Shown: positions 5,743-55,800 of the stretch, piece after piece
How positions within the stretch are numbered: the first letter of the stretch is position 1
Layout of the letters: every line of letters begins with the position of its first letter
Assembly (NCBI GenBank): GCA_003599415.1
Contig: QZKB01000148.1
Span: forward strand, 40,181-104,180
Direction: 5' to 3'
Source of the DNA: Ignavibacteriales bacterium
Lineage (GTDB): Bacteria; Bacteroidota; Ignavibacteria; Ignavibacteriales; SURF-24
Length of the DNA: 64,000 nt
Program-made: the position numbers and the translations under genes
Notes under the pieces: generated by a model
Databases searched by the model: none
Seen by the model: only the letters and a program-made list of their open reading frames with translations
Told to the model about the DNA's origin: nothing

Positions 5743-8700
5743 TTAAGATGAACATTCATCTTTTAATGCAAAGGAACCATTCTTATATCTTATTTTGAAT
5801 GATGCGCTCCTGCACAACTTACAACCGATTACACAAACTTTAATGCAGGCTTTAGCATCAACTTTGCCTGCAAAGCAAACAGGATCCGGAAACATTACCT
5901 GCATTACAGCATTCATTTCACCTGAAAGAAGACTAAGATAACCGGTGAAAAATTTAACATCTACATATACACCAATTTCTCCGGATGCTGACATTGATGC
6001 TGTACTTACGAACTGAAGCGGTTTATAATAAATTGTGCTGCTCATTCTAATACTTCCTGCTGCTTTTCCATAAAAGCCAAGACCGGCGCCCCACTTTTGC
6101 GGACCGGTATCAAATGTAAAACCTGCAGCAGTTGTCATATAATTCTGGTCGATTGTAAAGTATCCGTAGAAACCCTGTGCGGTACAGAACATCCTTAATG
6201 TAATCGGTTTTTCAGGTGTACCTATGTGAAGATACCACTCGCTTTCGGAAATGTGCATCTGCATTTCTCCGTCTCCGCAAAGCCCGTCCCAGAAGTTTGC
6301 TTCTATAGTACATTGAGAATCAAAGATTTTTGGATTAGTGGAAATAAAGATTGTAGCCGTACCTTTTATCTTGGCGTCCTCCTTCATAAAGCCGCTTGAG
6401 AGTACATAGATTTCGCCGTATAATGTGCTCTGGAAACCATTACCAACACGGATCTCTAAAGCTACCTTTCCCCAGAATTTGGAACCGTCATCGGAAACGG
6501 ATTGAATTGGACACATTGCGTATACGCCGAAAGTATTATTTTTATCGGGCACATAATCGCTTCCAAGAATACCGTCACCTTTATGTTTCATATGAGAATA
6601 GACTCTGCCTGTAAATCCTCTTATACCAATATCCATTACAGTTGTAATTGCAACCGGAAAGATTGCACCAGCTTCAACAAACCAATAGCTGAACCCATTT
6701 CCGTTATCTGTCTTTCCGATAATTATTTTGCTGAATGCGCTGAATTCAGTCGGGTCATGCATAGTCAAATTAAATGATGCAAGAAATCCTTTACCGTAAA
6801 CAGGGTCATCATTGAAGACAATTAACTGGGCGCCAAAGCTGGTTTCACCATTACCGAAATCAACTCCAATCGGTTCTACTTCAACTTCGCTGTTGGGAAC
6901 TTCTGTTCCGCTTTTGCCCAGACTGTACCGGGCAACAACTATACTTGCATCAAAAGGAGAGCCGTTCTGCGAAGATAAATCCTCTGCAACCACAATTGTC
7001 CCGGCAATTCCAAATGCATAATTCGCATATGTCTTTATCCTGAATTTATCCAGCATAATTGGAAAGCCGTTATATTTGCCTGGTTTGGTAACGCTTAAAT
7101 TTATCCAGCCTTCAGGGTCTGAACCAAAAGCAGAAACAGAACCTGTGCTGTCTATGAAGACATTTGAAACGGGAAGTTTCTCTGTCGTTAATCCATCAGT
7201 TCCGGTGCAATCGAATTTAAAATATCCGTTAAGCCAGAAACAGTTTATACCCGCGAGATAAGAAATAGTAACTATCTGCAATTTTAAAGTGCTTTTATCT
7301 CCCGGTTGACCTCCGCTAATTGCAATCCAGTTTGAAATTCCGTCTAACGAGACAATACCGTTTGAGAAACCATTAGAGGTAATATTATAAGTTATGTCAG
7401 CTTCCTTTTTAATAAACGGAATAAATATTTTGCCCTTAAGGAAATTTCCGGAGTTTCTGAATATGGAATTCTTGAGTATGTTGTTTTCATAATTAAGGCT
7501 GAACCGTTTGATGTTGAAAGCATAACCACGGTATGATCCTTCTAAATTAAGATTGTTTTTATGAATATAGCCGTGCAGCCCGGTAGCGATTATTCTGAAG
7601 TTATCTTTATCGTCCAAAGCGATTGGCGGGTAAGTCATCTTTGCCTGATCAAAAAATATCTCTCCCTGTTTTATGCCGACTAACCCGGCATACAAATCAA
7701 CATTTGCTTCTATAAACCTACACCGCACATCATAGTTACTAACAAGTTTAATGTTGATTAAATCGTTGGTTGCCACATCAAGCAGGAATTTAAAATCATT
7801 CTTATTATAAAACCGTAATGCAATTCTCTGCCCGTTTGAATTTTTTACGCTCACGGGTAAAAGTAATTCGCCCTGAAGTTTTAAAGTAAGCTTGTTGGCA
7901 TTTACAAGAAACTCACTCTGCGTCCTTCCGATATTAAGATTGAAATTAAGTGGAGTAAGCATAAAGAAATTATAATCCGTCTTTGGGTAAGCATGCTGGT
8001 TTTGACCTACAGTAATTTTATGAACGGGATCTACATTAAACCAGATCTCACCGGATTCCATTACGAGATTAGCAGAAGAACCTAAATTTTTAACAAGCAG
8101 GCTTGACTTAAAATTAATTGAGCCGAGTAATGTTGCCCTGTCTGGCTCTAATCTTATAGCAGTAGCTTTTAAAAATGAACTGCCAGGAATAGTTAGTTGT
8201 AATGAAATATTGGTTGGTGTAATGCTCGTCCATATTTCACCTTCGTTTACTTTCCATTCCGGAATTTGTCCGGTGGATATTACCTGTTGAAGCTTTAGTC
8301 CGTGAAAATCAAATTGAATTTTTGGTCCTCCGTGCCATAAAAGAACTTCACCTTTACCGCCAAAATAATTTGCGTTCTTATTTGTAATGGAAAGCAAGTT
8401 TACTTTATATTGCCCGATTATAAAATAATTAATGCTGTCAATCAGCGTAACGCCATTTTTAATCGTAAAACTTTCTGCTTCACTAGAAGCAGTTAAACCA
8501 TTATAAGCTTGTGAATAAGTTGTAACCTGCCAGGCATATCTTTGTTTGTCTTTCAGCTTTCCGGTTTCTTCAGGTAAAATATAAGATGACCAGGATGGAG
8601 GAATTTTATCATTATAAAAAACGTAAGGATTTTCTTTAAGTGCCCGGGCTGGAGTTTGTCCTTCATTTATCTCTGCAATCTTCAAACGAAAATTTGTTAT

Positions 8701-10002
8701 TGATTTTACAAGCTTTGAATTATCCCAACTGAAAAGGTATGTCCTGCTGTGAGACTGGCTATGTAAAGTATCAGCTTCAAAATCCGCATTGTCCACAGGT
8801 GATAATAACGGGATAAATTCAACACTGCTTTGTACGGTAAACTTCCAGATGCTGCTTGAATCAATTAATCCTCCCCACGGTTCCGAATAAAGCCAGACAC
8901 GCCAGGCATATTGTTTTTGATTTATTAAACTTCCTTCTTCTTCGGTTATCCAGTACATCGGTTGTGTAGGCAGGATATCATTCTTAAAAAAAACAGGTGG
9001 ATTATTATTCAATGCAGATTCAGCATTCTGCCCCGGTAAAATTTCTGCAATCTTCAACCAGAAATTTGTTATTGTCTTTTTCAGGTTGATTGTTGTCCAT
9101 GTAAACTTGAATGCTTTTGAGTACTGGCTTACCTGGGTTGCTGATAAGGTTGAATTATCAGCGGGTGAAACAAGTTCAACGGTTTTTTCTTCTTTAAATA
9201 TTTTGAATGACCATACTTCACTTTTACCGTCAGTTTTGAATTGTACTACAGAAGGACTGCCTGAACCGCTTACTGCCTGAACCTGCCATGCATATTGTTT
9301 CCCTTCTTCAAGAGGGAGAGCTTCCGGCGGATATTGTAAAATTGTTTGACTTGTAAGAACAGTTTCATAAACAGGCTGATTGGATTGAACAGCTTTCAGC
9401 GGTGTTTGCCCTGGAAGCATTTCACACAATTTAAATTTGTAATCAACAAGTAAAGGCGGAGGAACTTCAACCTGCCACCACTGTAACACGGGCATCGTTG
9501 TGTTAATTACACTCATATGTGTCGGCAAGGATAAAGCGGGCGATCCGGCGAGTATTATTGCAAAATCTGCACACGACTGCGAAAGCATTGTGTTTACCTG
9601 CTTAACTTCAGCGCAGGTTGTATAATCTCCCTCAGGCAAATTACCGGTTTGGACAATTATATTTTTGAAGCTGGCATTATATTTAATTGAATTCCAGTCA
9701 AGGTAATCCATTGTTTGAAAAACCTGGCTTTCACCGGCAGCAAAAAGTATGGTCTTACTACTCGCACTTAATATTTCACCAACACTTTTCTTTGTCACTT
9801 TAAGAAAGATTACAACTTCTTTACTTTCCGTACCTGTATTAGTAATTGTTAATGTTGCAATACCAGGATTATTTTCCCAGCTGGAAATCGTTGGTACAGG
9901 GTAATATGAAGACATGGTTAAGGATGATATCCATTGCTGCGGAGAGGATGTTGATAATAACAGAGTGAGTAAAACTAAAACTGATCGTTTAACCATAATC
10001 AC
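5743..10002 (-). CDS. Large secreted protein: TANFOR-like N-domain, three Ig-like repeats, long beta-rich C-terminal region, Cys-rich tail
   Basis: 1419 aa; signal peptide; GNLPEGDYTTC motif; three repeats of L.SP.DN...F.W...F.LKIAEI..GQ...AL..NP...YAW.V; ends ...CIKVCVIGCKLCRS...DECSS; no T9SS CTD. Confidence 0.7.
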   Translation of the reverse strand: MIMVKRSVLVLLTLLLSTSSPQQWISSLTMSSYYPVPTISSWENNPGIATLTITNTGTESKEVVIFLKVTKKSVGEILSASSKTILFAAGESQVFQTMDYLDWNSIKYNASFKNIIVQTGNLPEGDYTTCAEVKQVNTMLSQSCADFAIILAGSPALSLPTHMSVINTTMPVLQWWQVEVPPPLLVDYKFKLCEMLPGQTPLKAVQSNQPVYETVLTSQTILQYPPEALPLEEGKQYAWQVQAVSGSGSPSVVQFKTDGKSEVWSFKIFKEEKTVELVSPADNSTLSATQVSQYSKAFKFTWTTINLKKTITNFWLKIAEILPGQNAESALNNNPPVFFKNDILPTQPMYWITEEEGSLINQKQYAWRVWLYSEPWGGLIDSSSIWKFTVQSSVEFIPLLSPVDNADFEADTLHSQSHSRTYLFSWDNSKLVKSITNFRLKIAEINEGQTPARALKENPYVFYNDKIPPSWSSYILPEETGKLKDKQRYAWQVTTYSQAYNGLTASSEAESFTIKNGVTLIDSINYFIIGQYKVNLLSITNKNANYFGGKGEVLLWHGGPKIQFDFHGLKLQQVISTGQIPEWKVNEGEIWTSITPTNISLQLTIPGSSFLKATAIRLEPDRATLLGSINFKSSLLVKNLGSSANLVMESGEIWFNVDPVHKITVGQNQHAYPKTDYNFFMLTPLNFNLNIGRTQSEFLVNANKLTLKLQGELLLPVSVKNSNGQRIALRFYNKNDFKFLLDVATNDLINIKLVSNYDVRCRFIEANVDLYAGLVGIKQGEIFFDQAKMTYPPIALDDKDNFRIIATGLHGYIHKNNLNLEGSYRGYAFNIKRFSLNYENNILKNSIFRNSGNFLKGKIFIPFIKKEADITYNITSNGFSNGIVSLDGISNWIAISGGQPGDKSTLKLQIVTISYLAGINCFWLNGYFKFDCTGTDGLTTEKLPVSNVFIDSTGSVSAFGSDPEGWINLSVTKPGKYNGFPIMLDKFRIKTYANYAFGIAGTIVVAEDLSSQNGSPFDASIVVARYSLGKSGTEVPNSEVEVEPIGVDFGNGETSFGAQLIVFNDDPVYGKGFLASFNLTMHDPTEFSAFSKIIIGKTDNGNGFSYWFVEAGAIFPVAITTVMDIGIRGFTGRVYSHMKHKGDGILGSDYVPDKNNTFGVYAMCPIQSVSDDGSKFWGKVALEIRVGNGFQSTLYGEIYVLSSGFMKEDAKIKGTATIFISTNPKIFDSQCTIEANFWDGLCGDGEMQMHISESEWYLHIGTPEKPITLRMFCTAQGFYGYFTIDQNYMTTAAGFTFDTGPQKWGAGLGFYGKAAGSIRMSSTIYYKPLQFVSTASMSASGEIGVYVDVKFFTGYLSLLSGEMNAVMQVMFPDPVCFAGKVDAKACIKVCVIGCKLCRSASFKIRYKNGSFALKDECSS

Positions 10003-10236
10003 TCCAGATAAAAATGACAGGTCTTAAAACATTATTTAGTTTCGAAAATATCCGGACCGGTCACTCTTCATTTCAATTAAAAATACTAACTAATTTAAAC
10101 CGAGTTATATTTGTTTTAAAAAGAGCAACCATCTGTTAATGGCGTCATTCAAAAAATTCCACACGCATTTTATTAAAAAGGAACGGCCGTGTCAAGTAAA
10201 AACTTGGATATCGATGCTTCAAATCACCAAAAAGTT

Positions 10237-13164
10237 TTACTTAATCAAAATCATTTTCTTTGATGCTATATATGAACCTGCCCGCAAGGTGTAAAAATAA
10301 ATTCCACTTGATAAACTGCTTCCATTAAATTCAACATCATATGTCCCGGCAGATAATTCTTTGTTTATTAAGGTGATTATTTCTTTACCAAGAATATTGT
10401 ATATACGTAGAGACGTCATATATGACGTCTCTACCGCTGGTAACGTAAATTTTATTGTTGTGGTTGGATTAAACGGGTTGGGATAATTCTGCTCAAGATT
10501 GAATGTGAGATTTTTGCTGCTTTCAGATTCAAGTAAGGTTGGATTTCCATTTCCATACGCTTCAACTCCAAACCATAATGTTTTTTCATTGCTCAGATCA
10601 AACTCAACTAAAAAATTATTTGGCAAAACCGGGTGATGCATTCTGAATGTTCCCTTTTCCTTGCCTGTATTATCAAGCGGAATCACTTTTAATGAATCTG
10701 CGGACACATTAAGATTCAACACAATTACGGTTGGTTTAATCTGGGTTGGAGTCCTGCCCCAATTATTGTGGAATGTTGTTGTGCCGTCCCAAACCATACC
10801 TGTATTTTGTGTTACAGTAGAAATTGTAATAAGAGATTTATCAGAAACAAAAATTGAATCATCAGTTAACGAAACCCAAGTTATGGTAGCAAAATCATCC
10901 GCACTCTTTATCTGAAGATTGCCTGCTTTGGAATTTATAAAGTTGTTAAGGAAACCGCTTACACCAATAAATTTCTCTGTTGTAACAGTTATCAGACCAT
11001 TTGTATTCCAGATAATTTCATCAGTATCCGACACATAAGGACTTGCCGGTTCCTGCTGGTAAGCTGAAAAATCTGTTGGCGCTGCACTATTAAAAGATTC
11101 ATTCCTGAATGAATGTATTAAAGATAATTTTTTGTTAAAGAAAGAAGGGCCATACCAATCTCCGGTTTCGTACTTCGGTAAGAGATTAATCATTTCATTA
11201 CTGAAGTTTAGTTTAATTGTTTCTTTAGCCGGGGCAATGAAACCATTCCTGTATGCATAAGCGCAGGAAGGTATCAACGCCATTACAGCGTTATTGCGAT
11301 GAATACTAAAATAGCTGTCAACTCTGTCTGCTATCCATTCTGATCCGCCGTTGTAATCGAAATACATTACAGCATCAGTATTATGAAATGATGAATAGGC
11401 TGTAGTAAAAATTAATCCTTCAGTTTGGTAACGGTTAGGGAAGCAGTAATTTATTTCGCTAACAGTAAAAGGTTTACCTACGGAAGCCACACCGGCAAAA
11501 ACAGATGTTGTTCCCGTTGAAGACGATTTTACCATCGGCTCATTTGAAATTAACCAATCTGTTGATGACCAGGGTTCATTAGGAAACTGAGGATGATCCC
11601 AGTATGTATGATTATCAATGTAATCTAATTTAGATTGCGAAACCAAATCACCAGGACCAACATTCCAGTTGGTACCTACAATCGGCACTTTAACCTTAAG
11701 TGTATTTTTTAAGTAATCTTTCATTTCAGCATAAAAGTCATCCTGCAGCTTAATATAGAATGATGAAATATCTGCAATTCTTGCATCGGTATAAGTTACA
11801 CATTCTGTGTAGTCAATCCTTTTTACATTTCTGCTTTCGATTGATTCTCCTGCGATTAAACCTGTCATACCGGTAATACCAAGTTTAATGATGTCAAACC
11901 AATACGTACCAAGATTATTATTAAATGAAAATGATAATCTTCCGGTGTTTATTGTTTCGCTTGCTTTGAAGCTGAAAGAATAAATTTTCCAGTCTGTTGT
12001 AACACCAAAACTTTTAGAGCCGTAAGTAGTGTAAGGGCTATCATCACGCATTATTGAGACGGAAATGGATTTGTTAGCGTCTGTCCTTGCGGCAAATTCA
12101 ACTGTGTAAAGAGAATCTTTTTTTAATTTTATGTTTACCTGCTTCCATTGAATATGCCAGCTTGTGCCTGTTGTTTTTGTTACAGTGATTTTTGCAGATT
12201 TTAATCCTTCATAAGGATTTACAATATCTTTGCTCTGAGAAGCCGAGGCTGATTCGTGCAGTTCAACAATCCAGTTTGAGATTGTTGTGCCTGTTTCAAA
12301 GTTGCCGTCAACAATTTGATTTACAAAGTTTCCGATGCTAGCGCCTGCATTCCAGGCTGCAGCAATGTTTTGAGTAGAGGTATACTTGTCAGATAAAAAT
12401 TTATTCCAGAGGCTATCCAGCATGTGGTTGTGCCGCCAGATTAATTTTCCTCCGTCACCAAATGTTTTTAAATTTCCGTCCCGCCACATTCTGTATAGTG
12501 AATTTTCATTTACAATTTCTACCATTGCCATTACAGGATCATCTACCAATGGAAGGATTGTGTAAGGATTAATGTGAGTTAAAAGCTGTTCAGCATATTC
12601 TTTCTCAAGTTGAATAAGATAAGGATCAAATATAGTTACGCCTTTTGCGTAATCGGGAATTGAATCCGCATACTGAATTCCGTCTGTTACTTTAAACGGT
12701 CTTGATACATTCAGATTCATATTTATATACACGCCGTTTTTCTTCAACTCTGCAATATTGTTTTCAAGCAAATCAAGGTTGAACGGATTGAGCGATCTTG
12801 TATTTACCGCGTCACTAAATAAACTTTTACTGCTCCATGGGTTATCAAGATGATGGAGCCTCATCAGGTTGAATCCCATTTTTCTTATTCGTCCTGCAAT
12901 CATTGCAGCCTTGTTATAATCAGGAAATGCGCCGTCACCTGCCATGTTCCCACCCCAGAATCTTATTCGCTCTTCACCGGATGCAAAATTTCCGTCAGAG
13001 TTAATTGAAATGAAATTTTTTATTTCTTTAACGGGAAATTGCGGCAGGAATTTCTGGGTGGTTGTATCATTCCATGGTAAATTAAAATTAAACCCGTTTG
13101 AAAAGTTTTGTGATAAAATAAAACTGTTCAGAAAAAATATTACAGTAAAAATTTTTTTAATCAT
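10237..13164 (-). CDS. T9SS-secreted clan GH-A glycoside hydrolase with an internal CBM4-like module (GH148-like beta-glucanase)
   Basis: RFWGGN, RLHHLD, acid/base-like NENSL; central CBM4_9-like insert (DGNFE...W...WHIQWKQ...YTVEFAAR...WKIYSFSF...YWFD); IDNHTYWDHP; nucleophile-like VSEINYCFPNRY; T9SS CTD. Confidence 0.7.
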   Translation of the reverse strand: MIKKIFTVIFFLNSFILSQNFSNGFNFNLPWNDTTTQKFLPQFPVKEIKNFISINSDGNFASGEERIRFWGGNMAGDGAFPDYNKAAMIAGRIRKMGFNLMRLHHLDNPWSSKSLFSDAVNTRSLNPFNLDLLENNIAELKKNGVYINMNLNVSRPFKVTDGIQYADSIPDYAKGVTIFDPYLIQLEKEYAEQLLTHINPYTILPLVDDPVMAMVEIVNENSLYRMWRDGNLKTFGDGGKLIWRHNHMLDSLWNKFLSDKYTSTQNIAAAWNAGASIGNFVNQIVDGNFETGTTISNWIVELHESASASQSKDIVNPYEGLKSAKITVTKTTGTSWHIQWKQVNIKLKKDSLYTVEFAARTDANKSISVSIMRDDSPYTTYGSKSFGVTTDWKIYSFSFKASETINTGRLSFSFNNNLGTYWFDIIKLGITGMTGLIAGESIESRNVKRIDYTECVTYTDARIADISSFYIKLQDDFYAEMKDYLKNTLKVKVPIVGTNWNVGPGDLVSQSKLDYIDNHTYWDHPQFPNEPWSSTDWLISNEPMVKSSSTGTTSVFAGVASVGKPFTVSEINYCFPNRYQTEGLIFTTAYSSFHNTDAVMYFDYNGGSEWIADRVDSYFSIHRNNAVMALIPSCAYAYRNGFIAPAKETIKLNFSNEMINLLPKYETGDWYGPSFFNKKLSLIHSFRNESFNSAAPTDFSAYQQEPASPYVSDTDEIIWNTNGLITVTTEKFIGVSGFLNNFINSKAGNLQIKSADDFATITWVSLTDDSIFVSDKSLITISTVTQNTGMVWDGTTTFHNNWGRTPTQIKPTVIVLNLNVSADSLKVIPLDNTGKEKGTFRMHHPVLPNNFLVEFDLSNEKTLWFGVEAYGNGNPTLLESESSKNLTFNLEQNYPNPFNPTTTIKFTLPAVETSYMTSLRIYNILGKEIITLINKELSAGTYDVEFNGSSLSSGIYFYTLRAGSYIASKKMILIK
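10407..10434. repeat. 28-bp perfect GTAG-type REP-like palindrome inside the CTD coding region
   Basis: GTAGAGACGTCATA|TATGACGTCTCTAC is its own reverse complement; encodes VETSYMTSL in frame. Confidence 0.85.
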
Positions 13165-13248
13165 AAATCAGTCGGTAATGTTTAGTTTTGTTCCTGATGT
13201 AAAATTGAATTCCCTGTTCGGACTTAATTATTCTTGTGGTATTTGTAT

Positions 13249-15807
13249 TTATTTCATCAAAACCATTTTTTTCGATTCTATATATGAACCTGCCCGCAAG
13301 GTGTAAAAATAAATTCCGCTTGAAAGGTTACTACCATCAAAATTAACTTCGTATTCTCCTCCCGGATTTTTTTCATTTAAAAGAACAGCAACCTCATTAC
13401 CAAGTATATCAAAAATCTTTAATGTTACATTTTGTAAAGACGGGGCATGCCCCGTCTCTACATGTGGAATTGTAAATTTTATTGTTGTGGTTGGATTAAA
13501 CGGGTTCGGATAATTCTGTGATAAGAAATATTTTTCCGGCTTGTTATTATCAGTTTCATCAACAGAGGTGCCGGTATCATTTTTTCTTCCCGGTGTACCA
13601 TAATTTAAAGAAGCCATCCAGTTGGTGGCAACCGAATTATCACTAAGCGGATCAATTAATGCAAGCGTAGCTCCTGTCCCGTCCGCTTCAACAGGCCATG
13701 GAGAATTATCATCGAAAGTAAGCGAATCAATTATTCCTAAATTCCAGTCGAACAATCTTATTTTTTCTCCGCCGTTGTTCAACCCGAAATTAAAATCGCC
13801 AAGTTTGTTTTTAACTGACGGAAATGCAAGTGAGAACTTTGCTGTATCTCTGCATACAACCAAATAATCATTCGCTTTTATTATTGTGTTGGCAGGAAAA
13901 GCAAATGTGTGAGCATCATCTTCATCTTTAAATATCCAACCGGAAATATCGGCATCAATTGTATCTGTATTGTATAATTCAAACCAGTCTTCACAATCAA
14001 GTTCCGCTGAAGGATTATAATTGATTTCGTTTATTACAACTTTGTTAGTATAATCGCTGTCTGCTTCAAACACTGCTGTAGCAGAAAAAGCGGTTTCGGT
14101 TGGTAATGTAATAGTTTCCTTGTTGCCTCCTTCAATTCCATTCCACTCCTTAAATTTATAACCCGGTTTAGCTATTGCGGTTAATGTTACGGGATTTCCT
14201 TTATAATAGAATCCGTACCATGGAAATGAATTAAGCTCAAGCGAATTTAATTTTATCTTTCCTGCTGTCGCATCGGAAAGATTCAGGTAAACAAGCAACG
14301 TTGAATTAATCTTAAATTGATCTTTAAAAAATCCGGACAGGTAACCGATTCTCTCATCTGCAAATTTTTCAAGTTTTGCTACATTAGCGTTCCAGTTGTC
14401 AATATCGCCGCCCCATCGTTCAATGTGTTCAGGCATTTCCTTTTCAATACCTGTTTTCAACCTTTTGATAACTTTCTTAACGTTCTCTGCTTTAAATATT
14501 GTATTTGAAAAATCTGCAAACCGATTGATAAAACTTGTTTTAAATTCTTCATTAAGCAATAACCGTCTTAATAAGAGAGTAGACCATGGCGGATTTGGCC
14601 AGCTTGGTCCGTTTGCTTCCAAAGCAAATTTCAGAGTATTGTGTGTGGCTCCCTGATTGAAAAGACCGAACCCGAAATCTGTATCGTATAAAATCCATCG
14701 CCACTTGCCGTCGTCTTTCTGCGGTCTCCAGAATTTAATATTGTTACTCGGCCAGTCTGTATTTCCAAAATATATCTCGGCAATTGTATAATTAATAAAC
14801 TCATCCACATCCATTCTTAATTTTACAAACTCATAGTTAAGTTGCTGGCTCATATCTTTCTTGGAAATAAAATCCAGCAGGGCTTTGTAATGAGAATTAC
14901 TTCCTTGTATTACAGTTGCGTTACCTTCAAGAAGGTCAAGACTATCCGGGTTAACGTTGTGGTGCGATGCAAGGTAATGCTCATTTACTTTTTCGCGGAT
15001 GTTATGGATTCCCCAGTACTTTCCGTTCAGGTAAACAATGGCGGGGCGGTAAGCAAGCATATCAATATCTTTATTCCTTACGAGAGTATGCATTAAACCG
15101 TCTCTGAACAAAGTATAACTCCAGTCGTTCCCTCCATTACGGAGAATAAAGCTCTCGAACTTATCAATCTCAAGATCAGGGAAGATTTGATATTTTATTT
15201 TTCCGGTGCCGTAAGTGTTGCGTGCAAAAACAGCAAGTGACTTTTGCGGCTGTGCCCTGCTCCAACCACCAAATATTTTTACTCCTGCATCAATACTAAA
15301 GGCCTGTGTTCCATCCGGTTCATACATTTCAATATGGATTGGCTTTTCCCAATCCTGCCAGAAGTTTGCGCCGAAGTTTGGGTTTGCTGTTTCTGCACTG
15401 TCACCCAGGACGTAGATTCCAAAATCATTATCCCAGAGATTAGGCGGATTTGTTGTAATCGATACGGTTGGCAGATCCGTTGGATTGTTTATTATATATG
15501 TGTTTGTAATTGTATTGCTTGATGTTGTATCATTTAAAAAAGATTTGGCTCTTACAACGGTTGTTTTATTTAAAGTGATTGGCGAATTGTATTTATATGA
15601 TTTTGTTGTCGGCTCTGAGCCGTCGCTTGTAAGATAAATTTTTTCATCCGGTGAGTTTGATGTGATGGACAAGGAAACCGGGACGTTAAATATTCCGCCA
15701 TTGATAGAAAAAACAGGCGGCTGCAACGTTGTATTATTTTGTCCAATGATATTATAGTTTAAAATAACTGTAAGAAAACAAGTAACCGATATTAGAAAAC
15801 TTTTCAT
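13249..15807 (-). CDS. T9SS-secreted CotH-family kinase with N-terminal Fn3-associated/CHB_HEX-like domain and lamin-tail domain
   Basis: YLTSDGSEPT; YLNGKYWGIHNIREK; NTDWPSNN (catalytic-loop-like); YDTDFGFG; LTD motifs VVINEINYN and DWFELYN; T9SS CTD. Confidence 0.85.
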   Translation of the reverse strand: MKSFLISVTCFLTVILNYNIIGQNNTTLQPPVFSINGGIFNVPVSLSITSNSPDEKIYLTSDGSEPTTKSYKYNSPITLNKTTVVRAKSFLNDTTSSNTITNTYIINNPTDLPTVSITTNPPNLWDNDFGIYVLGDSAETANPNFGANFWQDWEKPIHIEMYEPDGTQAFSIDAGVKIFGGWSRAQPQKSLAVFARNTYGTGKIKYQIFPDLEIDKFESFILRNGGNDWSYTLFRDGLMHTLVRNKDIDMLAYRPAIVYLNGKYWGIHNIREKVNEHYLASHHNVNPDSLDLLEGNATVIQGSNSHYKALLDFISKKDMSQQLNYEFVKLRMDVDEFINYTIAEIYFGNTDWPSNNIKFWRPQKDDGKWRWILYDTDFGFGLFNQGATHNTLKFALEANGPSWPNPPWSTLLLRRLLLNEEFKTSFINRFADFSNTIFKAENVKKVIKRLKTGIEKEMPEHIERWGGDIDNWNANVAKLEKFADERIGYLSGFFKDQFKINSTLLVYLNLSDATAGKIKLNSLELNSFPWYGFYYKGNPVTLTAIAKPGYKFKEWNGIEGGNKETITLPTETAFSATAVFEADSDYTNKVVINEINYNPSAELDCEDWFELYNTDTIDADISGWIFKDEDDAHTFAFPANTIIKANDYLVVCRDTAKFSLAFPSVKNKLGDFNFGLNNGGEKIRLFDWNLGIIDSLTFDDNSPWPVEADGTGATLALIDPLSDNSVATNWMASLNYGTPGRKNDTGTSVDETDNNKPEKYFLSQNYPNPFNPTTTIKFTIPHVETGHAPSLQNVTLKIFDILGNEVAVLLNEKNPGGEYEVNFDGSNLSSGIYFYTLRAGSYIESKKMVLMK
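13434..13461. repeat. 28-bp GTAG-type REP-like palindrome (1 mismatch) inside the CTD coding region
   Basis: GTAAAGACGGGGCATGCCCCGTCTCTAC; encodes VETGHAPSL in frame. Confidence 0.85.
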
Positions 15808-15824
15808 GAATGTACACCAGAATT

Positions 15825-16496
15825 TTAAAAATGTTCTTCGTCAAAAAAGAGATTTATGTGCTCAATGCCGACAATATTTTTTAAGTCTCTTAAAAACTCA
15901 TTGTTTTTATCTTTATTCCGCAATTGGACGTAGTAGGACAATTCCAATCCCTCTTCGCTGCCGAGTGATTTAACGTTGATCAGTTTATAGCTTTTACAAT
16001 ATTTCTTTATCACTTTCTGATACGGAACTTCATTTGAATCATCTGTGTAGTAAAACTGCAGCAGGTATTCTTCACGTGTTGAGGGGAGTGAGTTGAACTT
16101 TGACAGTGCAAGCAGAACGACCCCAATAAAGATTGTTCCGGCAATTGCTATCGACAATAATCCAACGCCTGTTGCCATACCGATTGCGAGCGAGTAAAAA
16201 ATAAAAACTATATCGAGAGTATCCTTAACCGCGGTTCTGAATCTTATAATAGACATTGCTCCGACTAATCCAAATGCGCGGGCAAGATTATTTCCTATTA
16301 CCATAATTACGATTGTGGTTATCAGTGACAAGGTAATCAGGGAAATTACAAAGGAATTTGTGTAGCCGGTGCCCTTGTAAGATGTCTTGTAAAAGAAAGC
16401 AATTATTAACCCGCACAAAAACGAAACAATTAAATTTGCAAAGACATCGCCGAACGAAACTGAGAAATTAACAATACCTTGAAATTCCCGGGACAT
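15825..16496 (-). CDS. DUF4956 membrane protein (about 4 TM helices plus a soluble ACT-like C-terminus)
   Basis: Hallmark IGNNLARAFGLVGAMSIIRFRTAVKD; hydrophobic N-half; starts 2 bp after the VTC gene stop. Confidence 0.85.
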   Translation of the reverse strand: MSREFQGIVNFSVSFGDVFANLIVSFLCGLIIAFFYKTSYKGTGYTNSFVISLITLSLITTIVIMVIGNNLARAFGLVGAMSIIRFRTAVKDTLDIVFIFYSLAIGMATGVGLLSIAIAGTIFIGVVLLALSKFNSLPSTREEYLLQFYYTDDSNEVPYQKVIKKYCKSYKLINVKSLGSEEGLELSYYVQLRNKDKNNEFLRDLKNIVGIEHINLFFDEEHF

Positions 16497-16498
16497 TT

Positions 16499-17290
16499 TC
16501 AGATAGCTTCCTTACGTGAGATTTTATCCTTCCAAACCGGGTTGCCCAGAGCAAGAAATTTTTTATTTGACGTTGGTCTCAGTTCTTTATCGGCATCAAT
16601 GCAAATTGAATATTTTGAAACTGCTAACCGTATTAACTGGAATTTATTAATGATCTTTGAGAAGTGTTCCGGAAAGCCCTGGTAAAACTTCATCTCAAAC
16701 ACGAAATGATTTTTAATTGCAGGCTTCAGAATATTATCTTCATACAAATCGGCAAACAACGGAAGGGAGTAGTACCTTAGATTTTTGTCAAAAGTTATTC
16801 TGATGTTAGTGTCGAACCTGGAAAAGTATGCTTCACGTTCATACACAACAAGAGAGATCGGTTTTAATAATTTTTTGTTAACGTGGAAAAAGAATCTTTG
16901 TGCGTTTTTAATTGAATCCGCATCACTTTGAATTATGTAACTATCAAGATCGCCGGTATAAAAAATATCATCAAGATTTTTATAGTAAATTTTTGAGCGA
17001 TGCTTGTCAATAAAATTTTCTCTTTTCCTTTTTATCTCAAGAAATACAACGCAGTCGTCCATAAATTTATTATAACCGCGGATTCTTAATTTCTTGCGGA
17101 TTTTCAATCCTTCAATCTTTTCATGGTAAAAATCAAGATTGGGTGAATCGTAATAAATACTTCTAACAGTATATTGATTATTCTCGCAGGCCGAAGCAAA
17201 TCTATCTGTTTCCACGAACGGCAACATTTCATTGCGGATATCGTCAAGATATTTATTTGGCACAAGATATTTATATTCCCGGCGCAGCAA
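16499..17290 (-). CDS. VTC-domain (CYTH-like) polyphosphate polymerase domain protein
   Basis: RREYKYLV, YTVRSIYYDS, KLRIRGY, VFLEIKRK, YEREAY, RITFD, FEMKF, SKY motifs; TTG start with an AGGA-like RBS. Confidence 0.85.
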   Translation of the reverse strand: MLRREYKYLVPNKYLDDIRNEMLPFVETDRFASACENNQYTVRSIYYDSPNLDFYHEKIEGLKIRKKLRIRGYNKFMDDCVVFLEIKRKRENFIDKHRSKIYYKNLDDIFYTGDLDSYIIQSDADSIKNAQRFFFHVNKKLLKPISLVVYEREAYFSRFDTNIRITFDKNLRYYSLPLFADLYEDNILKPAIKNHFVFEMKFYQGFPEHFSKIINKFQLIRLAVSKYSICIDADKELRPTSNKKFLALGNPVWKDKISRKEAI

Positions 17291-17477
17291 TATCCTGTTC
17301 CCAAAGAGAAATTAAAATTTGATTCGTAAACCTTTTCATTTTAGCAGCTGTAAATTTTATTTTACAGAAAAATCCTTTCAATTACCTTTTTACAGGTCTA
17401 ATATAACTAAAAATATGTGTTATATATAATTGAAAAAATCACCCCGATCTCTGCCGCAAAGAATATTATCCGAAATA

Positions 17478-19286
17478 CTATTTGAGTACAAGAAGCTTTC
17501 TTGTTAAAGATTTATTGCTACATCGCAAAGTGTAAAAATATATGCCGGAAGAGACTGTTGTATTCGATTCATTTTTTGAATCCCAGGTAATCATATTCTC
17601 TCCCGGGAGAGATAAATCGATATGTTTTGAATAAATTGTCTTCCCGAGTGCATCAAATATATAAAAATCGAGAGGTGTTTCCTTAGCTACATTATATTTT
17701 ATTATTGTTCTTCCGTTAAAAGGATTTGGAAAATTCTGGTGAAGCTGGAATTCATCGGGTACAATATTTCCTGTTTCAATTTCACCGGTTGATAACTGAT
17801 CAATTATAATTCCGTTTAGTAAAGTATTATCAATTTCAGCCGCAAAATATAAATCAAGAATTTCATCGGTTACGTGTATGTTTTCAAACGTAAGTACATA
17901 AGCGTTATTTTTACCGGCAACCTGGAATACATCCAGGTTATCTGCACTTAAAGAATCCTCGATATAAATATCGAATACTCTGCTCCCTGCAGTTGAAAAA
18001 TAATTTTCGCTTAACAGCAGTTGTAACTTATATAAACCATTCGGCACTCTTACTTTGTATGCAACCAGGCCATATTGTTCAGACTGAAAGATAGAATCGT
18101 CCTCTGTGTTATTTATTTGTGTTTCGGCAGGAACTTCCGAAGTCGAACCTTCACAATAACCATATTCTGTTGTTTCATTGAATCTTTGATCGGGCAGAAA
18201 TCCCATTGCTTCCGGACCGCCGATGTTTATTTTAACAGGAAAACTTAACGGCTTAGACATATTAATGCTTACTGCTCTTAAGGTGCTTGTATTTGGGGGA
18301 ACAAAAAGGTCTTTTATGCCAGCGTAAGTTATCAGGTTATATGATTTGTTGAGATCAAGATTTGATGTAAAGAGGAGCATGGTTTTTTTATCATCTTGAA
18401 GACGGACGCTGTCTATTGTTACTCCGCTAACAAGATAAAGATTTTTATTTTCGGCAGAAGTTTTATCAAGTTCTTCAGAATATTTTGCTACAAACCTGCC
18501 GGGTTCCGCTCTAACCCAAAGCAGGTATGGAGGTTTTACATCTGTATACCCGATGTTAGTGTTATTTGTTAAGCAAAGAATTAGCTTGCCGTCACTGAAC
18601 ACGGCATTATCATGAATGAATGAGCAATTGTTACCGTTCCATGTATGTGTTCCTTTCTCCCACTTTGTCTCATCCCAGGAATCCAGGTTATCAGTCCAAA
18701 GATGCGTGAAGTTATTTTGGGAACCATAACTGCCTGTGCCCGGGGTATATGAATAGTAACTTACAAAATCATAATAGGCGAAGGCAGGCAGTGCATTTTC
18801 ATTCCATGTACCTACCCAGTTATCATAAGCCGGGTTCCAGATATTCATCATTATTTTTTGAGGATGAACCAATGTGCTGATATGTTCACCCGTCTGACGA
18901 TAAACTTCTTCACCGTCAATAAACCATGCAACATAATCAGGTGTCCACTCAAAAGCGTAAGTGTGATAATCTAAAGACGGGTTGAAATTAACGGGCTGTG
19001 AACGTACATGATTTTTTTGTCCCGGAGTTATTGTATTGAATTGAATATTGTTCTCATAGCGGCCGAGTATTTCAATATCAATCTCGTTCCAGTTGCTTGT
19101 GCCAACACCATCGTAATAAGTAAAAAAGGAAGCAAGCATTCCATCTCTTTGTGCCGCTTTAATCTTAGCCTCGAACCGGCCGTAGGTATAAGCTTCTTTT
19201 GTCCTGTACTCTGCGCCGTAATAATCCTTTGCATGTAAAAATCCCGTAAGAGACACTAATAAAAATAAAATGATTGCTTTTTTCAT
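17478..19286 (-). CDS. T9SS-secreted GH16 beta-1,3(4)-glucanase with Ig-like and malectin-like domains (copy 1)
   Basis: Catalytic WNEIDIE; YGRFEAKIK; YHTYAFEWTPD; malectin-like KINIGG...ENYFSTAGSRVFDIYIE; CTD. Confidence 0.9.
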   Translation of the reverse strand: MKKAIILFLLVSLTGFLHAKDYYGAEYRTKEAYTYGRFEAKIKAAQRDGMLASFFTYYDGVGTSNWNEIDIEILGRYENNIQFNTITPGQKNHVRSQPVNFNPSLDYHTYAFEWTPDYVAWFIDGEEVYRQTGEHISTLVHPQKIMMNIWNPAYDNWVGTWNENALPAFAYYDFVSYYSYTPGTGSYGSQNNFTHLWTDNLDSWDETKWEKGTHTWNGNNCSFIHDNAVFSDGKLILCLTNNTNIGYTDVKPPYLLWVRAEPGRFVAKYSEELDKTSAENKNLYLVSGVTIDSVRLQDDKKTMLLFTSNLDLNKSYNLITYAGIKDLFVPPNTSTLRAVSINMSKPLSFPVKINIGGPEAMGFLPDQRFNETTEYGYCEGSTSEVPAETQINNTEDDSIFQSEQYGLVAYKVRVPNGLYKLQLLLSENYFSTAGSRVFDIYIEDSLSADNLDVFQVAGKNNAYVLTFENIHVTDEILDLYFAAEIDNTLLNGIIIDQLSTGEIETGNIVPDEFQLHQNFPNPFNGRTIIKYNVAKETPLDFYIFDALGKTIYSKHIDLSLPGENMITWDSKNESNTTVSSGIYFYTLRCSNKSLTRKLLVLK

Positions 19287-19315
19287 AACGGTAAATCCAT
19301 CTGTTATTTATAAAA

Positions 19316-22300
19316 CTATTTCACTAAAATTAATTTTTTTGTAGAGATAAAATTTTCCGCCTTCAACTGGTAATAATAAATTCCGCTTGATAAGCTGCTT
19401 CCGTCGAAATGAATTTCATACCTGCCCGCTTGTTTCTCTTCATTCGTAAGCGTAAGTATTTCTTTTCCCAATATATCGTAAATTTTTAACGATACAAAAC
19501 CTGCTTCAGGAATCTGATAACGGATTGTTGTAGCAGGGTTGAATGGATTCGGAAAATTTTGTTCCAGTTCGTATTTATCGGGCACCCCGGTCAGTTCAAC
19601 TCCGGTGGTAATGTCAAATGCTACATTATCTGAATAAGGAGTCCAGCGAAGATTCTGATCACGATATTTTACTCTGTAATAATAAGTTTTCCCATCTGTA
19701 AATTTTGATTTACTTAAAGTAAGCGTTGATAGATCAATGCCGGCATTTTTGTCAACAGGATTAAAATTACCATCAACTCCGTAAATATTCTGCCAGTTGG
19801 AGATTGAATCAATTACGGTCGATTTGAAGTTCGGATCCTCACTTACCTGGAATCTTGAACTCATCAAAGCATCACTTCCTGTAAAAGCAGAAGCGTTAAA
19901 AACAATGCTGCTCTCGTTTTTAATAGGGTTGTTTGCAACGGGTTTTTCAGGTGCAGGTTGGTTTAATCTTCTGTGCCATCTATCTAACAATTCTGCATTA
20001 AGAGTTTTACTTTCATTGCCAAGGCTGTACATAGATTCTTCGAAAGTTTTATTCTCAATATCAATTTCCATTAAGAGAAAATGGTAATGATCAAACGAAG
20101 TGTGAATCTGCGGGTAATCCTTGTTTATGAATTCACCCCAGTTATCTGTAGCGCCGCCGCCGCCGCCGGCACATACTGTTCTGAAATCCCCATTATCTTT
20201 ATCTGATTCTATTACTCCTCTTTCAAAGGCATGAGTATGACCATAAGTAACCTGCTGTACTTTTGAATATTTTTTTAGAATCGGAAACAGTTCATTTCTT
20301 ACCCAGTTCGGCCCGCCATCAAATGTTAATGCTTCAACCCATAATTCTGTTAGGAAAGGATGATGGAAAATGAAGAATACAAAATCAATATTAGGATTGC
20401 TTTCGAATTCTTTTAATTTCATTTCTACCCACACTTTTTGAAGTGTGCCGGCTGACTTTACAATGTTTGTGTTAAGACTTATTATAGCTGTGTTTCCAAC
20501 TGTGAACGAATAGAATTTTTCATTCTGTGCACTTGGGTAAGGGAATGCAGAAAATTCATCGTAGTGAAAATAATCATAATAGAACTGGGTCTCTCCCTCA
20601 TGATTTCCTGTTGTTGTCATAATTGGGACATACGGAGAAAGGGGAGCGAATGGTGCAAAGTACTGATCAGTAAACTGGTTAATTGCACTTCCGTTTACAA
20701 CCAAATCCCCGGAATGAAGAATAAGGTTAATCTGGTTCTGGATATCAGTACCATATAATTCTTCAACTTTTTGTTTTGCAGCCCTTATAACTTTCATGGC
20801 CATGCTTGTATCGCTGGAATGAGTATCGCTGAACTGCAGAATTCTGATTTTTCCTTTATATGTTGAATCAGGGTAAGTTTTAAATGAATATATTTTTGAT
20901 TCACCGCTTCCGCTTATTGCTTTGTAGAAATAAGTAGTATTGGGCTGCAGGTTTGTTAATTTAACCGTATGCCATCTGAAAGGATCGCTGATAACTTCAT
21001 TTGTACCTGCAACAGATTGACCAAGGGACTCGGTCGTGCCGTATTCAACATTTGTAATAGCTGCGGCAGTATCATGCCAGCATATAAATGTAGAAGTAGG
21101 AGTTGTAGACTGAAGGTAGGGGAGTAGTACTAATTGTTTAATACCGGTCTGGTGTCCGAATCCTCCGAGGTTTTTAACCTCGTCATCGGTTAGGGAGTAA
21201 TTCCATATCTTTAATTCAGAACAATAAATCTCGCTGTCTTCACCATCGTTATCTGCAAAAATTAAAAGTTTATCAGCAAGAGCAAATCTTCCGTCTACAC
21301 TTTGTGCGGTTCCATTATGAATTAATTTTCCGTCAACGAAGTACTTGTACTGTTTTCCGTTCTCAACAGAAATTACAAGGCGGTACCATTCGTTTTTTTC
21401 AATCTGGCTGCTTGAATAGCCGGTTGCTCCAACACCGATATTTCCAGTAGGATTAATAAAACAATCGCCATCATCACCATTCCCGGTGCTGGTCTGAAAA
21501 AATGAATACCAGGGGCCCAAATCAGGAATTTTAAAATCGAATTGCAATGTGTAACTGTTAACAGATAAACCCCCGCCGTTTGCAGAAATTCCGTGTGTCA
21601 TTTTATAATAACTACCTATTCCAATTTTAACGGCGTCATTACCATTGGCTGGTCCGTCAACAATTTCGTGTGTGCCTATTAATTCTAAAGGAAGCCCAAG
21701 ATCCGGTTCTGCCTTTAAAACATCATTCGGGTCATCAAATTTCCAGTTACCAACAAGCTTGGGAGTATTAGCTGTTGTATCGCCTAATACATGTCCGAAT
21801 CCGCCTAATGCCATAATCTCACTTTCGGCTAAAGCTCTGCTCCAGATGGAAGTCTGTGCTATATCCATTACACCGTCTTCTCCATCGTTATCTGCAAAAA
21901 GAAGTAACGTCGCAGGTAATGAAAATCTACTGTCAATATTCTGTTTATTTCCATCCAGCAGAAGCTGCCCGTCTAGATAAGTGCGGAAAAATTCTCCATT
22001 CTTTACTGCAATTATCAGCCTGTACCATTCATTTGGTGAGACGGAGTAAGCCCCGTAACCAGTTGCATTTGTTCCTAATTTTCCTTCAGTATTAATGAAA
22101 AAATCGGCGTCATCTGAATTGGTTTGAGTTGTCTGGAAAAAGGCCTTCCAACTTGTAATATCAGGAACCTTGAAATCGAACTGAAGAGTATATTCATTTA
22201 CTAATGAACCACCGCCATTTGCAGAAATTCCATGTTCTGCCTGGTAGTAGCTTCCAGGGCCGATTCGTACTGCTTTATTATTTTGCGAAGGGCCATCGAC

Positions 22301-23089: not shown

Positions 23090-23139
23090 ATTTATCCTGC
23101 ATTTAAAATAGATTTTTTGAAAAGGGAACTACTGGAATG

Positions 23140-23187
23140 CAAAAATAGAAGAGGGAGCATGGAATCACAATCGCATGTTCATGGTAT
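23140..23187 (-). promoter_or_regulatory. Promoter with conserved 18-bp box (candidate NarL-family site) and TAnnTTTG element
   Basis: + strand ATCGCATGTTCATGGTAT at 23170-23187; minus-strand TATTTTTG at 23147-23140, 22 bp downstream; same box upstream of three neighbouring genes. Confidence 0.7.
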
Positions 23188-23242
23188 TATGGTGTTTTAA
23201 AAAAACAGTACTTATAAGGAAATTTTAAGGCAGGTTAATTTG

Positions 23243-23270
23243 AAAAAAAAGGGGAGCTTCTGCTCCCCTT
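23243..23270 (-). terminator. Intrinsic terminator after the GDPD gene
   Basis: Stem GGGGAGC/GCTCCCC with 4-nt loop, followed by U8 on the minus strand. Confidence 0.85.
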
Positions 23271-23297
23271 AAATGTGGAAATTAAGTACGGACAAAT

Positions 23298-27125: not shown

Positions 27126-27237
27126 TTAATACTCCATATTGTTAATTAATAAAGTTTATTCGTGAGAAATATATTTACGAATCAATCATGCTTTTGTTTC
27201 AGTATTGTGAGTAATGGCCTCGGACTTTTGACCGTTG

Positions 27238-27285: not shown

Positions 27286-27297
27286 TCTAAGCCGGGA

Positions 27298-55746: not shown

Positions 55747-55800
55747 TGATGTAAAGATGTAAATTATTTTATATTTTTTTTCTTTAAAAAATTAACTTAC

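Follow-up and report, generated by a model that had tools for sequence, protein, structure and literature searches.

A VTC, DUF4956 and CotH gene trio in an Ignavibacteriales genome

A 64,000-nucleotide stretch of contig QZKB01000148.1 from an Ignavibacteriales bacterium (hereafter the window) carries a compact trio of genes whose products are a VTC-domain protein, a DUF4956 membrane protein and a CotH-family kinase. The open reading frame (ORF) listing, combined with Pfam, places these genes as follows:

16499-17290, minus strand: VTC-domain protein, 263 aa, TTG start
15825-16496, minus strand: DUF4956 membrane protein, 223 aa
13249-15807, minus strand: CotH-family kinase, 852 aa

Gaps of only 2 bp (16497-16498) and 17 bp (15808-15824) separate the VTC gene from the DUF4956 gene and the DUF4956 gene from the CotH gene, respectively, and the ORF coordinates reproduce exactly the tight coupling that had been described in an initial annotation made from the sequence alone. 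We propose that this locus represents a bacterial, split form of a polyphosphate synthase-translocase of the VTC type with a functional tie to secreted CotH kinases, a reading to which we assign a probability of roughly 45%.

The gene trio itself is already known, and the Ignavibacteria locus is a further instance. In two papers, genes for cotH, a poly-phosphate polymerase, DUF4956 and DUF4832 make up an accessory gene group of Gram-positive pel loci whose function is left open (Whitfield 2020, PMC7112168; PMC12345266), in agreement with the earlier statement that this neighborhood recurs and has no demonstrated function. Streptococcus intermedius SIR_1592-1594 is one such triad, and mutants in its DUF4956-like and CotH genes produce less Pel and aggregate less (PMC12345266). 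Another report lists the triad in the NELoc-2 locus of Clostridium perfringens (PMC2879425).

The VTC protein resembles the active subunit of the yeast polymerase

The yeast VTC complex couples the synthesis of polyphosphate from ATP to translocation of this polymer through a membrane. The triphosphate tunnel metalloenzyme superfamily also contains plain triphosphatases. The VTC domain (PF09359) of the window protein is recognized by Pfam with an E-value of 9.5e-39 and 133.8 bits (cut-off 23) over profile positions 2-231 of 235, and it is the sole Pfam family in a 263-aa protein that has no transmembrane (TM) domain. The domain begins at the N-terminus and there is no signal peptide, as expected for the cytoplasmic protein that the initial annotation had described. 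Pfam detects neither an SPX nor a DUF202 domain in this protein or in the products of its neighboring genes.

A profile constructed from 34 homologues matches the catalytic domain of yeast Vtc4 (3g3q) from end to end with an E-value of 1.9e-25, and it scores Vtc4 (93 bits) above the inactive subunits Vtc2 (59 bits) and Vtc3 (43 bits). Positions K7, R65, K67, R69, R71, E85, K87, K96, R152, R164 and K226 are invariant among the 34 aligned sequences, and E199, K201 and S225 are nearly so. The conserved tunnel residues align with the KYW, RLRWY, ERK, LEVK and SKF stretches of Vtc4, and we take them, on the strength of the alignment, to be the equivalents of yeast K200, R264, R266, K281, E426 and S457/K458. 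Judged by this alignment, the window VTC protein retains every tunnel residue of the active yeast subunit, and it is predicted to be soluble and to belong, among triphosphate-tunnel enzymes, with the polyphosphate polymerases of the Vtc4 type.

The yeast complex (Vtc4 with Vtc1, Vtc2 and Vtc3; 3g3q, 7ytj, 8i6v) and the bacterial protein thus share a catalytic tunnel domain with conserved basic and acidic residues, and they may also share the logic by which synthesis on the ATP side is coupled to membrane passage. In contrast to its yeast counterpart, the bacterial protein lacks both an SPX domain and a fused TM domain of the DUF202 type, and has instead a separate and unrelated MgtC-like membrane partner. 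Its relatives in diderm bacteria add a periplasmic adaptor, and the polymer would end up outside the cell and not in a vacuole. Because the host genome also carries two genes each for PPK1 and PPX (but none for PPK2), VTC would be an extra, specialized enzyme and not the sole route to polyphosphate. One of the PPK1 genes (C1:121967-122524) is located approximately 17.8 kb past the end of the window, and the CotH paralogue at C1:129239-133687 lies some 7 kb away from it.

VTC and DUF4956 form a near-obligate pair

Gene associations were evaluated in two samples. The first comprises 201 genomes drawn evenly from the phylum, with counts that are uncorrected for relatedness, and the second comprises the 80 nearest loci in species-representative genomes, in 77 of which the VTC gene was recovered by ORF calling. 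VTC and DUF4956 are a near-obligate pair in both. When the 201 genomes are read by eye, a DUF4956 match lies directly beside 35 of 38 VTC matches and within 3.5 kb of 37 of 38, and all 34 genomes with a VTC match also have DUF4956 (34/34). Likewise, DUF4956 is directly downstream of VTC in 73 of the 77 loci. We refer to this pair below as the module.

A database search for natural fusions yielded only two proteins, P0004 (461 aa) and P0005 (481 aa), in which VTC and DUF4956 are joined in one chain, each represented by a single sequence from a single contig. Given that the two genes can be separated by as few as 2 bp, these chains may be sequencing or gene-calling read-throughs as well as true fusions, and we give them little weight.

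Predicted architecture of the DUF4956 protein

The window protein matches DUF4956 (PF16316) with an E-value of 1.1e-14 and 54.9 bits (cut-off 30.6). Its AlphaFold model (mean pLDDT, the predicted local distance difference test score, of 84) exhibits five helices at residues 15-39, 47-67, 71-89, 93-110 and 114-134, all of which are predicted to span the membrane, consistent with the earlier description of an integral membrane protein. These helices are followed at residues 144-218 by a C-terminal domain of beta-alpha-beta-beta-alpha-beta order. Among 41 DUF4956 sequences, R85 and R87 are the only invariant columns, and the resulting R85-F-R87 motif closes helix 3. When the positive-inside rule is applied to the model, both this motif and the ACT-like C-terminal domain are predicted to face the cytoplasm.

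A helical membrane domain followed by an ACT-like domain is also the layout of MgtC/SapB proteins, which DUF4956 resembles weakly over its full length. The scores are far below the curated cut-offs for that family (20.1 bits versus 31.4 for Pfam MgtC, and 34.6 bits versus 214 for the NCBIfam MgtC/SapB model PRK09977), and DUF4956 has features of its own in the RFR motif, which never varies, and in its strict pairing with VTC. A Foldseek search of the model against the PDB returned no match at an E-value of 0.001 or better; the C-terminal domain alone matches, weakly, ACT/ferredoxin-like folds including ribosomal protein S6. A co-fold of DUF4956 and VTC at a 1:1 ratio, each with an alignment, gave a score of 0.01 and was not used as evidence either way.

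This likeness suggests an alternative in which nothing is exported. DUF4956 would be an MgtC-like regulator that tethers the cytoplasmic VTC enzyme and tunes ATP or phosphate homeostasis, and the adaptor encoded in related loci would serve other transport. Besides the shared TM and ACT-like architecture, this alternative draws on the published description of MgtC as a regulator of ATP synthase and PhoR and not as a transporter (PMC12345266).

Adaptor and outer-membrane genes in related loci

The genes that accompany the module elsewhere bear directly on this question. Immediately upstream of VTC in 68 of the 77 loci is a gene for a protein of approximately 356 aa, and this gene also flanks the pair in 20 of the 21 loci of a first set. 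Its product is a MacA/EmrA-like membrane fusion protein. Pfam assigns HlyD_3, profile searches match MacA, AcrA and EmrA, and the structural model (pLDDT 86) combines an N-terminal TM helix with long alpha-hairpins, for which the best Foldseek matches are MacA in MacAB-TolC (1.5e-14) and EmrA in EmrAB-TolC. No other transporter genes were found in the adaptor-VTC-DUF4956 operons of the relatives examined.

Candidate outer-membrane components appear in several additional arrangements:

L031: CotH, DUF4956, HlyD adaptor, OEP/TolC-like protein (OEP by Pfam; the sole such locus), VTC
L023: VTC, DUF4956, weak Porin_O_P-like (phosphate-porin-like) gene (E 1e-4), CotH
L045-L047 (family f27; genomes G028, G176 and G152): YceI, DUF6580, DUF4956, HlyD-like adaptor, 412-aa signal-peptide protein, short-chain dehydrogenase

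The f27 loci have no VTC gene, and their 412-aa protein is weakly similar to the OEP gene product of L031 (BLASTP 2e-5). Chloroflexota are monoderm, and in the three evaluable loci from Anaerolineae (L105, L107 and L120) the pair occurs without an adaptor, which fits a role for the adaptor in crossing an outer membrane. A second DUF4956 subgroup has a DUF2490 gene, with weak porin-like similarities, directly after DUF4956 (L033, L038, L044 and L048), or one gene further away in L040, where the assignment is a jackhmmer label. The same order of DUF4956 and DUF2490 is found in Bacteroides thetaiotaomicron as BT3498/BT3499 (PMC10434189).

These adaptor and outer-membrane associations of VTC-DUF4956 fit export across both membranes. 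The relatives share with MacAB-TolC, EmrAB-TolC and synthase-dependent exopolysaccharide secretion systems the adaptor fold and, in one locus, a TolC-like OEP protein, next to an inner-membrane protein and a cytoplasmic polymerase. Unlike the known systems, these loci have no ABC, RND or MFS pump; DUF4956 would be the inner-membrane partner and the cargo would be an inorganic polymer. The earlier proposal of a split VTC-like export machine gains from the adaptor and outer-membrane genes of these relatives, but not from the window, where the adaptor is missing.

This missing adaptor is a further point in favor of the alternative in which DUF4956 is a regulator of an enzyme whose product stays inside the cell. 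That alternative leaves it unexplained, however, that the most constant neighbor of the pair is an adaptor with no other transporter gene in the operon, and that DUF4956, adaptor and OEP genes lie in a row in L031. The VTC profile, moreover, is nearer to active Vtc4 than to the inactive yeast subunits. We therefore consider an arrangement without export to be quite unlikely.

The window carries an atypical copy of the module

The genes that surround the trio in the window are arranged as follows, according to Pfam:

23298-27125, minus strand: secreted phosphodiesterase with GDPD, LamG and type IX secretion system (T9SS) tail
19316-23089, minus strand: purple-acid-phosphatase-type secreted protein with LamG, upstream of the GH16 gene
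17478-19286, minus strand: protein with GH16 (glycoside hydrolase family 16), malectin and T9SS tail, 602 aa, upstream neighbor of the trio
17291-17477: intergenic region of 187 bp upstream of the VTC gene
10237-13164, minus strand: T9SS cargo with a CBM4_9 carbohydrate-binding module, 975 aa, directly downstream of the CotH gene

The 187-bp region occupies the position at which most relatives carry the gene for the membrane fusion protein, and it is empty here. It contains one sigma-70-like site (17381..17354), although the scan of this region found neither promoter-like sites (25 versus a mean of 24.4) nor terminator-like sites (3 versus 4.4) in excess of shuffled sequences. No adaptor or outer-membrane gene stands beside the window's pair, and the membrane fusion protein gene that characterizes tripartite systems is therefore missing from this operon. 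Searches of the assembled genome revealed no adaptor orthologue (26% identity for the best tblastn match) and no DUF2490.

Comparison with a congeneric assembly shows that this arrangement is shared. Locus L061 has the same adaptor-less order of phosphatase, GH16, VTC, DUF4956, CotH and CBM4 protein, and its DNA is approximately 90% identical over window positions 10241-22962. The encoded GH16 orthologue is 84% identical, and the 975-aa CBM4 protein, in the same position, is 95% identical. The GDPD gene (23298-27125) is missing from the otherwise collinear L061, where the match jumps from window position 22962 to 27298, marking a recent insertion or deletion among the secreted phosphoesterase genes.

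The congeneric assembly also carries, on another contig, a second module that does include the adaptor (L060). Of L060, just the initial 866 bases have a match in the host genome, and this match sits at the extreme end of contig C70, so that a second module may lie in an assembly gap. Given this observation, and a host assembly of 5.03 Mb in 173 contigs that is 88.5% complete, absence of the adaptor from the organism cannot be claimed.

In L025 and in six Ignavibacteriales species (L066, L071, L077, L080, L090 and L098), the order is GH16 with malectin, GH3, adaptor, VTC, DUF4956, CotH, T9SS protein, CotH, with identities of 54-60% among GH16 orthologues and 66-70% among GH3 orthologues. In L080, the GH3 gene (440 aa) and the adaptor gene (two pieces) are fragmentary. 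The window looks like this Ignavibacteriales arrangement minus GH3 and the adaptor. Two accommodations with the export hypothesis are conceivable. The window copy may deliver its product to the periplasm only, through which T9SS cargo passes, or it may rely on a second, adaptor-bearing module such as that of the congeneric genome.

Secreted CotH kinases accompany the module

The CotH domain of the window kinase (PF08757) is recognized with an E-value of 2.3e-53 and 182 bits. The protein is composed of a signal peptide, CHB_HEX_C/Fn3_assoc (36-104), CotH (176-490), Flg_new_2 (534-583), LTD (587-698) and a T9SS sorting domain (766-849). The initial annotation had assigned a signal peptide and a C-terminal sorting domain to this kinase, and both are evident as a hydrophobic, signal-like N-terminal segment and a tail matched by Pfam Por_Secre_tail (E 1e-10) and NCBIfam TIGR04183. 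An N-terminal signal, a type A sorting domain and a PorV-like gene in the genome are the features expected for T9SS cargo, and all are present.

The sugar kinases Fam20B and POMK are relatives of the CotH fold. A CotH profile matches Bacillus cereus CotH (5jd9) over the whole domain with an E-value of 8.4e-40. Residues D351 and D375 align with D228 and D251 of the B. subtilis protein, and all ten of the CotH domains that were aligned have both; mutation of D228/D251 inactivates the Bacillus kinase (PMC7821199). Both catalytic aspartates of Bacillus CotH are therefore kept in the window protein. The two proteins differ in other respects, since the Bacillus kinase has approximately 360 aa, acts inside the mother cell, uses ATP in vitro (PMC7821199) and comes, in B. 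subtilis, from a genome without VTC or DUF4956, whereas the window kinase is multidomain and secreted.

A profile search of the host assembly yields ten CotH matches alongside one VTC and one DUF4956. The nine CotH paralogues outside the window are at the following positions, given as contig and coordinates:

C50:6800-8512
C29:14417-16786
C3:43956-46478
C70:7474-10521
C5:65213-68803
C12:57265-60354
C10:5493-6794
C1:129239-133687
C7:26836-29820

A T9SS-type tail is present on nine of the ten host CotH proteins, all nine of which open with a hydrophobic segment, and a core of CHB_HEX_C/Fn3_assoc and CotH is common to eight of the ten, mostly together with Flg_new_2 and LTD. Eight of the nine paralogues outside the window are tailed, with a typical layout of [LTD]-CHB_HEX_C/Fn3_assoc-CotH-Flg_new_2-LTD-tail, and the C10 paralogue (430 aa) has no tail.

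Genome-level distributions likewise connect the module to CotH. Among the 201 genomes, VTC is matched in 34, DUF4956 in 65 and CotH in 82. Every VTC genome has CotH (34/34), and CotH is present in 62 of the 65 genomes with DUF4956 versus 20 of the 136 genomes without it. The pattern repeats within families of patchy distribution, where the counts for VTC versus CotH are 4/13 versus 10/13 (f2), 1/4 versus 2/4 (f4) and 1/10 versus 2/10 (f5). The mean number of CotH matches per genome is 4.6 with VTC and DUF4956, 3.4 with DUF4956 alone and 1.8 with neither. Among 14 control genomes profiled for the three families, VTC and DUF4956 are each matched in the same three, B. thetaiotaomicron, Corynebacterium glutamicum and Methanosarcina acetivorans, and CotH is found in these three plus B. 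subtilis. A module that never occurs without CotH, when CotH sometimes occurs without the module, suggests that the module serves CotH-related biology and is not required by every CotH protein.

A separate clade of module-linked CotH proteins, absent from genomes that lack the module, was only partly borne out. In a quick tree whose choice of rows from module-less genomes favored high-scoring matches, the clade of the window protein (34 rows) includes one of the 13 CotH proteins from such genomes, and the other two clades also hold module-adjacent members.

Glycan enzymes and phosphoesterases near the module

The initial annotation had placed the trio between a GH16 and a GH148-like gene and had proposed extracellular phosphorylation of surface proteins or of the glucan, loosely analogous to glucan phosphorylation in starch breakdown. 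In the glucan version, the exported donor would serve to phosphorylate beta-glucan, much as glucan water dikinase acts on starch, opening the polymer for the flanking glucanases. Pfam supports the GH16 assignment on one side. On the other, the GH148-like label finds no support, as searches of Pfam, NCBIfam and PDB sequences reveal nothing in the product of 10237-13164 beyond the CBM4 module and the T9SS tail. This module is most like the laminarin-binding CBM4 of Thermotoga maritima Lam16A (1gui, E 2.7e-10).

A survey of 82 proteins encoded by the two genes on each side of the module in 22 loci revealed T9SS tails (14), CBM26 (6) and alpha-amylase (3) domains, phytase-like/SdiA-regulated proteins (4), Metallophos (3), GH16 (2), malectin (2) and Cthe_2159 (1), with the rest belonging to housekeeping families. 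Only the T9SS tail, phytase-like and Metallophos families recur in more than one lineage, and all CBM26 and alpha-amylase matches come from three related genomes in which two GH13 amylases with starch-binding CBM26 precede the module. In the larger first set, three loci have the carbohydrate-binding protein Cthe_2159 beside the module. In genome G004, from the same family as the host, the order is Cthe_2159, adaptor, VTC, DUF4956, with no CotH or GH16 gene adjoining. Thus, the link to glycan genes is one of conserved synteny in some lineages and is not general, and phosphoesterase-type neighbors are about as common. The link consists mainly of a GH16-GH3 synteny in Ignavibacteriales, and the flanks of the 22 loci are mostly of the housekeeping type.

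The idea that beta-glucan is the substrate does have several points in its favor. The conserved order of GH16 with malectin, GH3, adaptor, VTC, DUF4956 and CotH persists in L025 and six species at 54-70% identity, and the window and L061 carry a shortened form. Amylases or Cthe_2159 occupy comparable positions elsewhere, and the CHB_HEX_C/Fn3_assoc domain of eight of the ten CotH paralogues is also found on these amylases. In anaerobic fungi and bacteria, cellulosomes include CotH proteins with an unclear role (PMC12484212); these are extracellular and travel with plant-polysaccharide-degrading enzymes, as here, although they are dockerin-anchored and not exported by T9SS, and no link to VTC or DUF4956 is reported for them.

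Most flanks are nevertheless housekeeping genes, GH16 appears only twice among 82 proteins, the six CBM26 matches come from three close genomes, and G004 has the module with neither GH16 nor CotH adjoining. The window is itself one long array of at least 12 T9SS-tailed cargo genes, and adjacency to any one of them is cheap. We know of no CotH protein that phosphorylates a glycan, and glucan phosphorylation was introduced purely by analogy, with glycan enzymes near the module in particular lineages only. Phosphorylation of the glucan itself in the manner of starch breakdown is therefore, in our estimation, improbable.

Phosphoesterases point to a different possibility. The two secreted enzymes encoded at 19316-23089 and 23298-27125, which were absent from the initial annotation, lie close to the module. 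In L049 (G111:C15, approximately 9763-12871), DUF4956 is followed by a gene for a 341-aa protein without a Pfam family and by a purple-acid-phosphatase-type gene, echoing the phosphatase two genes upstream of the window module. In L011, L012, L017 and L022, a gene for an SdiA-regulated/phytase-like beta-propeller protein of approximately 260 aa is directly downstream of DUF4956. The jackhmmer neighbor labels "pap" and "gh16" were set aside because the T9SS tail that these proteins share had contaminated them.

These neighbors fit a reading in which polyphosphate is a secreted end product, an extracellular polyanion that might be a matrix partner for cationic polymers such as Pel, a reservoir of cations or phosphate, or a surface coat. 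CotH proteins would then act on or anchor the polymer, or would be merely co-regulated and use another donor. The evidence for export through an adaptor and outer-membrane protein fits this possibility equally well. It is also favored by the recurrence of secreted phosphoesterases (the window pair, Metallophos in 3 and phytase-like proteins in 4 of 82 flanking proteins, and L049), by the occurrence of CotH without the module, and by the Gram-positive genes beside Pel synthase genes, whose mutants have lowered Pel and aggregation. What it leaves unexplained is why the module always comes with CotH (34/34 VTC genomes and 62/65 DUF4956 genomes) and why CotH paralogues are more numerous in genomes that have the module. 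For these reasons we view an end-product role as unlikely, and we favor the hypothesis that the secreted kinases depend on the module.

Additional features of the window

The neighbors of the trio are on the same strand and are mostly T9SS cargo. Further minus-strand genes encode a CE2 esterase, a two-component pair, a second GH16 protein, a GH9 protein and a PorV-like protein. Two genes from this region are of additional interest:

36788-37819: PorV-like gene, a T9SS component
41018-43738: TonB-dependent receptor

No SusD family member was found among the 25 ORFs scanned from a total of 30 ORFs of at least 150 aa, with the five plus-strand ORFs past 55.8 kb lying outside the scan. The pairing of SusC-like and SusD-like genes that typifies a polysaccharide utilization locus is thus not seen in the scanned ORFs. 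Two very large ORFs are also present. One at 5743-10002 (1419 aa) matches no Pfam and no NCBIfam family, and another at 37833-41006 (1057 aa), without a Pfam family, sits between the PorV-like gene and the TonB-dependent receptor. Near 55.8 kb (about 55500-56000), gene orientation changes from minus to plus, and GC skew changes from negative to positive at the same spot.

A model for polyphosphate export and its relation to known systems

Our proposal can be summarized as a series of steps. At the cytoplasmic side of the inner membrane, VTC would draw on ATP to build phosphate chains, and a DUF4956 oligomer, with its RFR motif and ACT-like domain in the cytoplasm, would receive and translocate the growing chain. 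In typical diderm carriers, the chain would then exit via the MacA-like adaptor and an outer-membrane conduit, in a process that resembles synthase-dependent polymer secretion with an inorganic polymer as cargo. Secreted CotH kinases would depend on the exported polyphosphate, whose simplest role would be to donate phosphoryl groups in a setting that lacks ATP. Because the module travels with GH16 and GH3 in this lineage, the kinases may act on beta-glucan, or on proteins of the surface apparatus that degrades it, and this is the weakest step. That VTC polymerizes, that the chain is translocated, that it acts as a donor and that glucan is a target are all inferences beyond the gene content. 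A more elaborate version, in which the Vtc4-like polymerase, DUF4956 translocon, MacA-like adaptor and outer-membrane channel extrude polyphosphate through the entire envelope as an extracellular energy and phosphoryl currency for secreted CotH kinases, which in turn phosphorylate insoluble polysaccharide (beta-glucan, starch) or its enzymes in glycan degraders, is improbable.

Several observations weigh against export of a donor for secreted CotH kinases. The membrane part of DUF4956 matches no known channel fold by Foldseek against the PDB, and the resemblance of this protein to MgtC, together with the absence of adaptor and DUF2490 genes from the host assembly, argues in the same direction. 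As noted above, B. subtilis CotH uses ATP. A CotH gene is the immediate neighbor of the module in no more than 26 of 77 loci; in 31 of 77 one is present anywhere within the retrieved sequence, and contig ends shorten many of these loci. VTC and DUF4956 are both missing from 20 of the 82 CotH genomes, and a T9SS tail is present on 11 of the 13 CotH proteins that were examined in 12 genomes lacking the module, indicating that CotH does not strictly need the module. DUF4956 in turn is not always dependent on VTC. In family f27, DUF4956 and CotH are found in the same 26 of 33 genomes and VTC in only 2 of these; in the other 24 of the 26 DUF4956-bearing genomes, all of which have CotH, VTC was not found anywhere. 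Finally, the papers found contain no biochemical data on bacterial VTC, DUF4956 or secreted CotH proteins.

Among the closest known systems are the Gram-positive pel group and NELoc-2, in which the same three families are side by side; mutants of the DUF4956-like and CotH genes have a polysaccharide-linked phenotype. These hosts are monoderm, with no adaptor mentioned, and the neighboring genes there direct polysaccharide synthesis, as opposed to the degradative T9SS cargo found here. In addition, the pel-linked CotH protein carries FN3, whereas the window protein carries LTD and a T9SS tail. Nothing on an adaptor link, on export or on a donor for secreted CotH proteins was encountered in the searched literature (subscription papers and supplements were outside the search). 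Relative to the searched papers, three aspects appear to be new. The VTC-DUF4956 pair is wired to outer-membrane genes and to an adaptor of the tripartite-pump kind, its dependence on CotH runs one way, and CotH paralogues secreted by the T9SS have expanded around one module.

The source of phosphoryl groups for secreted bacterial kinases outside the cell is an open puzzle, and the module offers a concrete and testable answer. If the proposal is true, it would provide a function for three large families: bacterial VTC proteins, DUF4956 and the CotH proteins of non-sporulating organisms. It would also extend the coupled synthesis and translocation of VTC from eukaryotic vacuoles to bacterial envelopes, and the architecture of tripartite pumps would gain a new kind of cargo. 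Given that the same genes lie beside streptococcal Pel biofilm loci and in a disease-associated locus of C. perfringens, the relevance of this system may reach beyond environmental Ignavibacteria.

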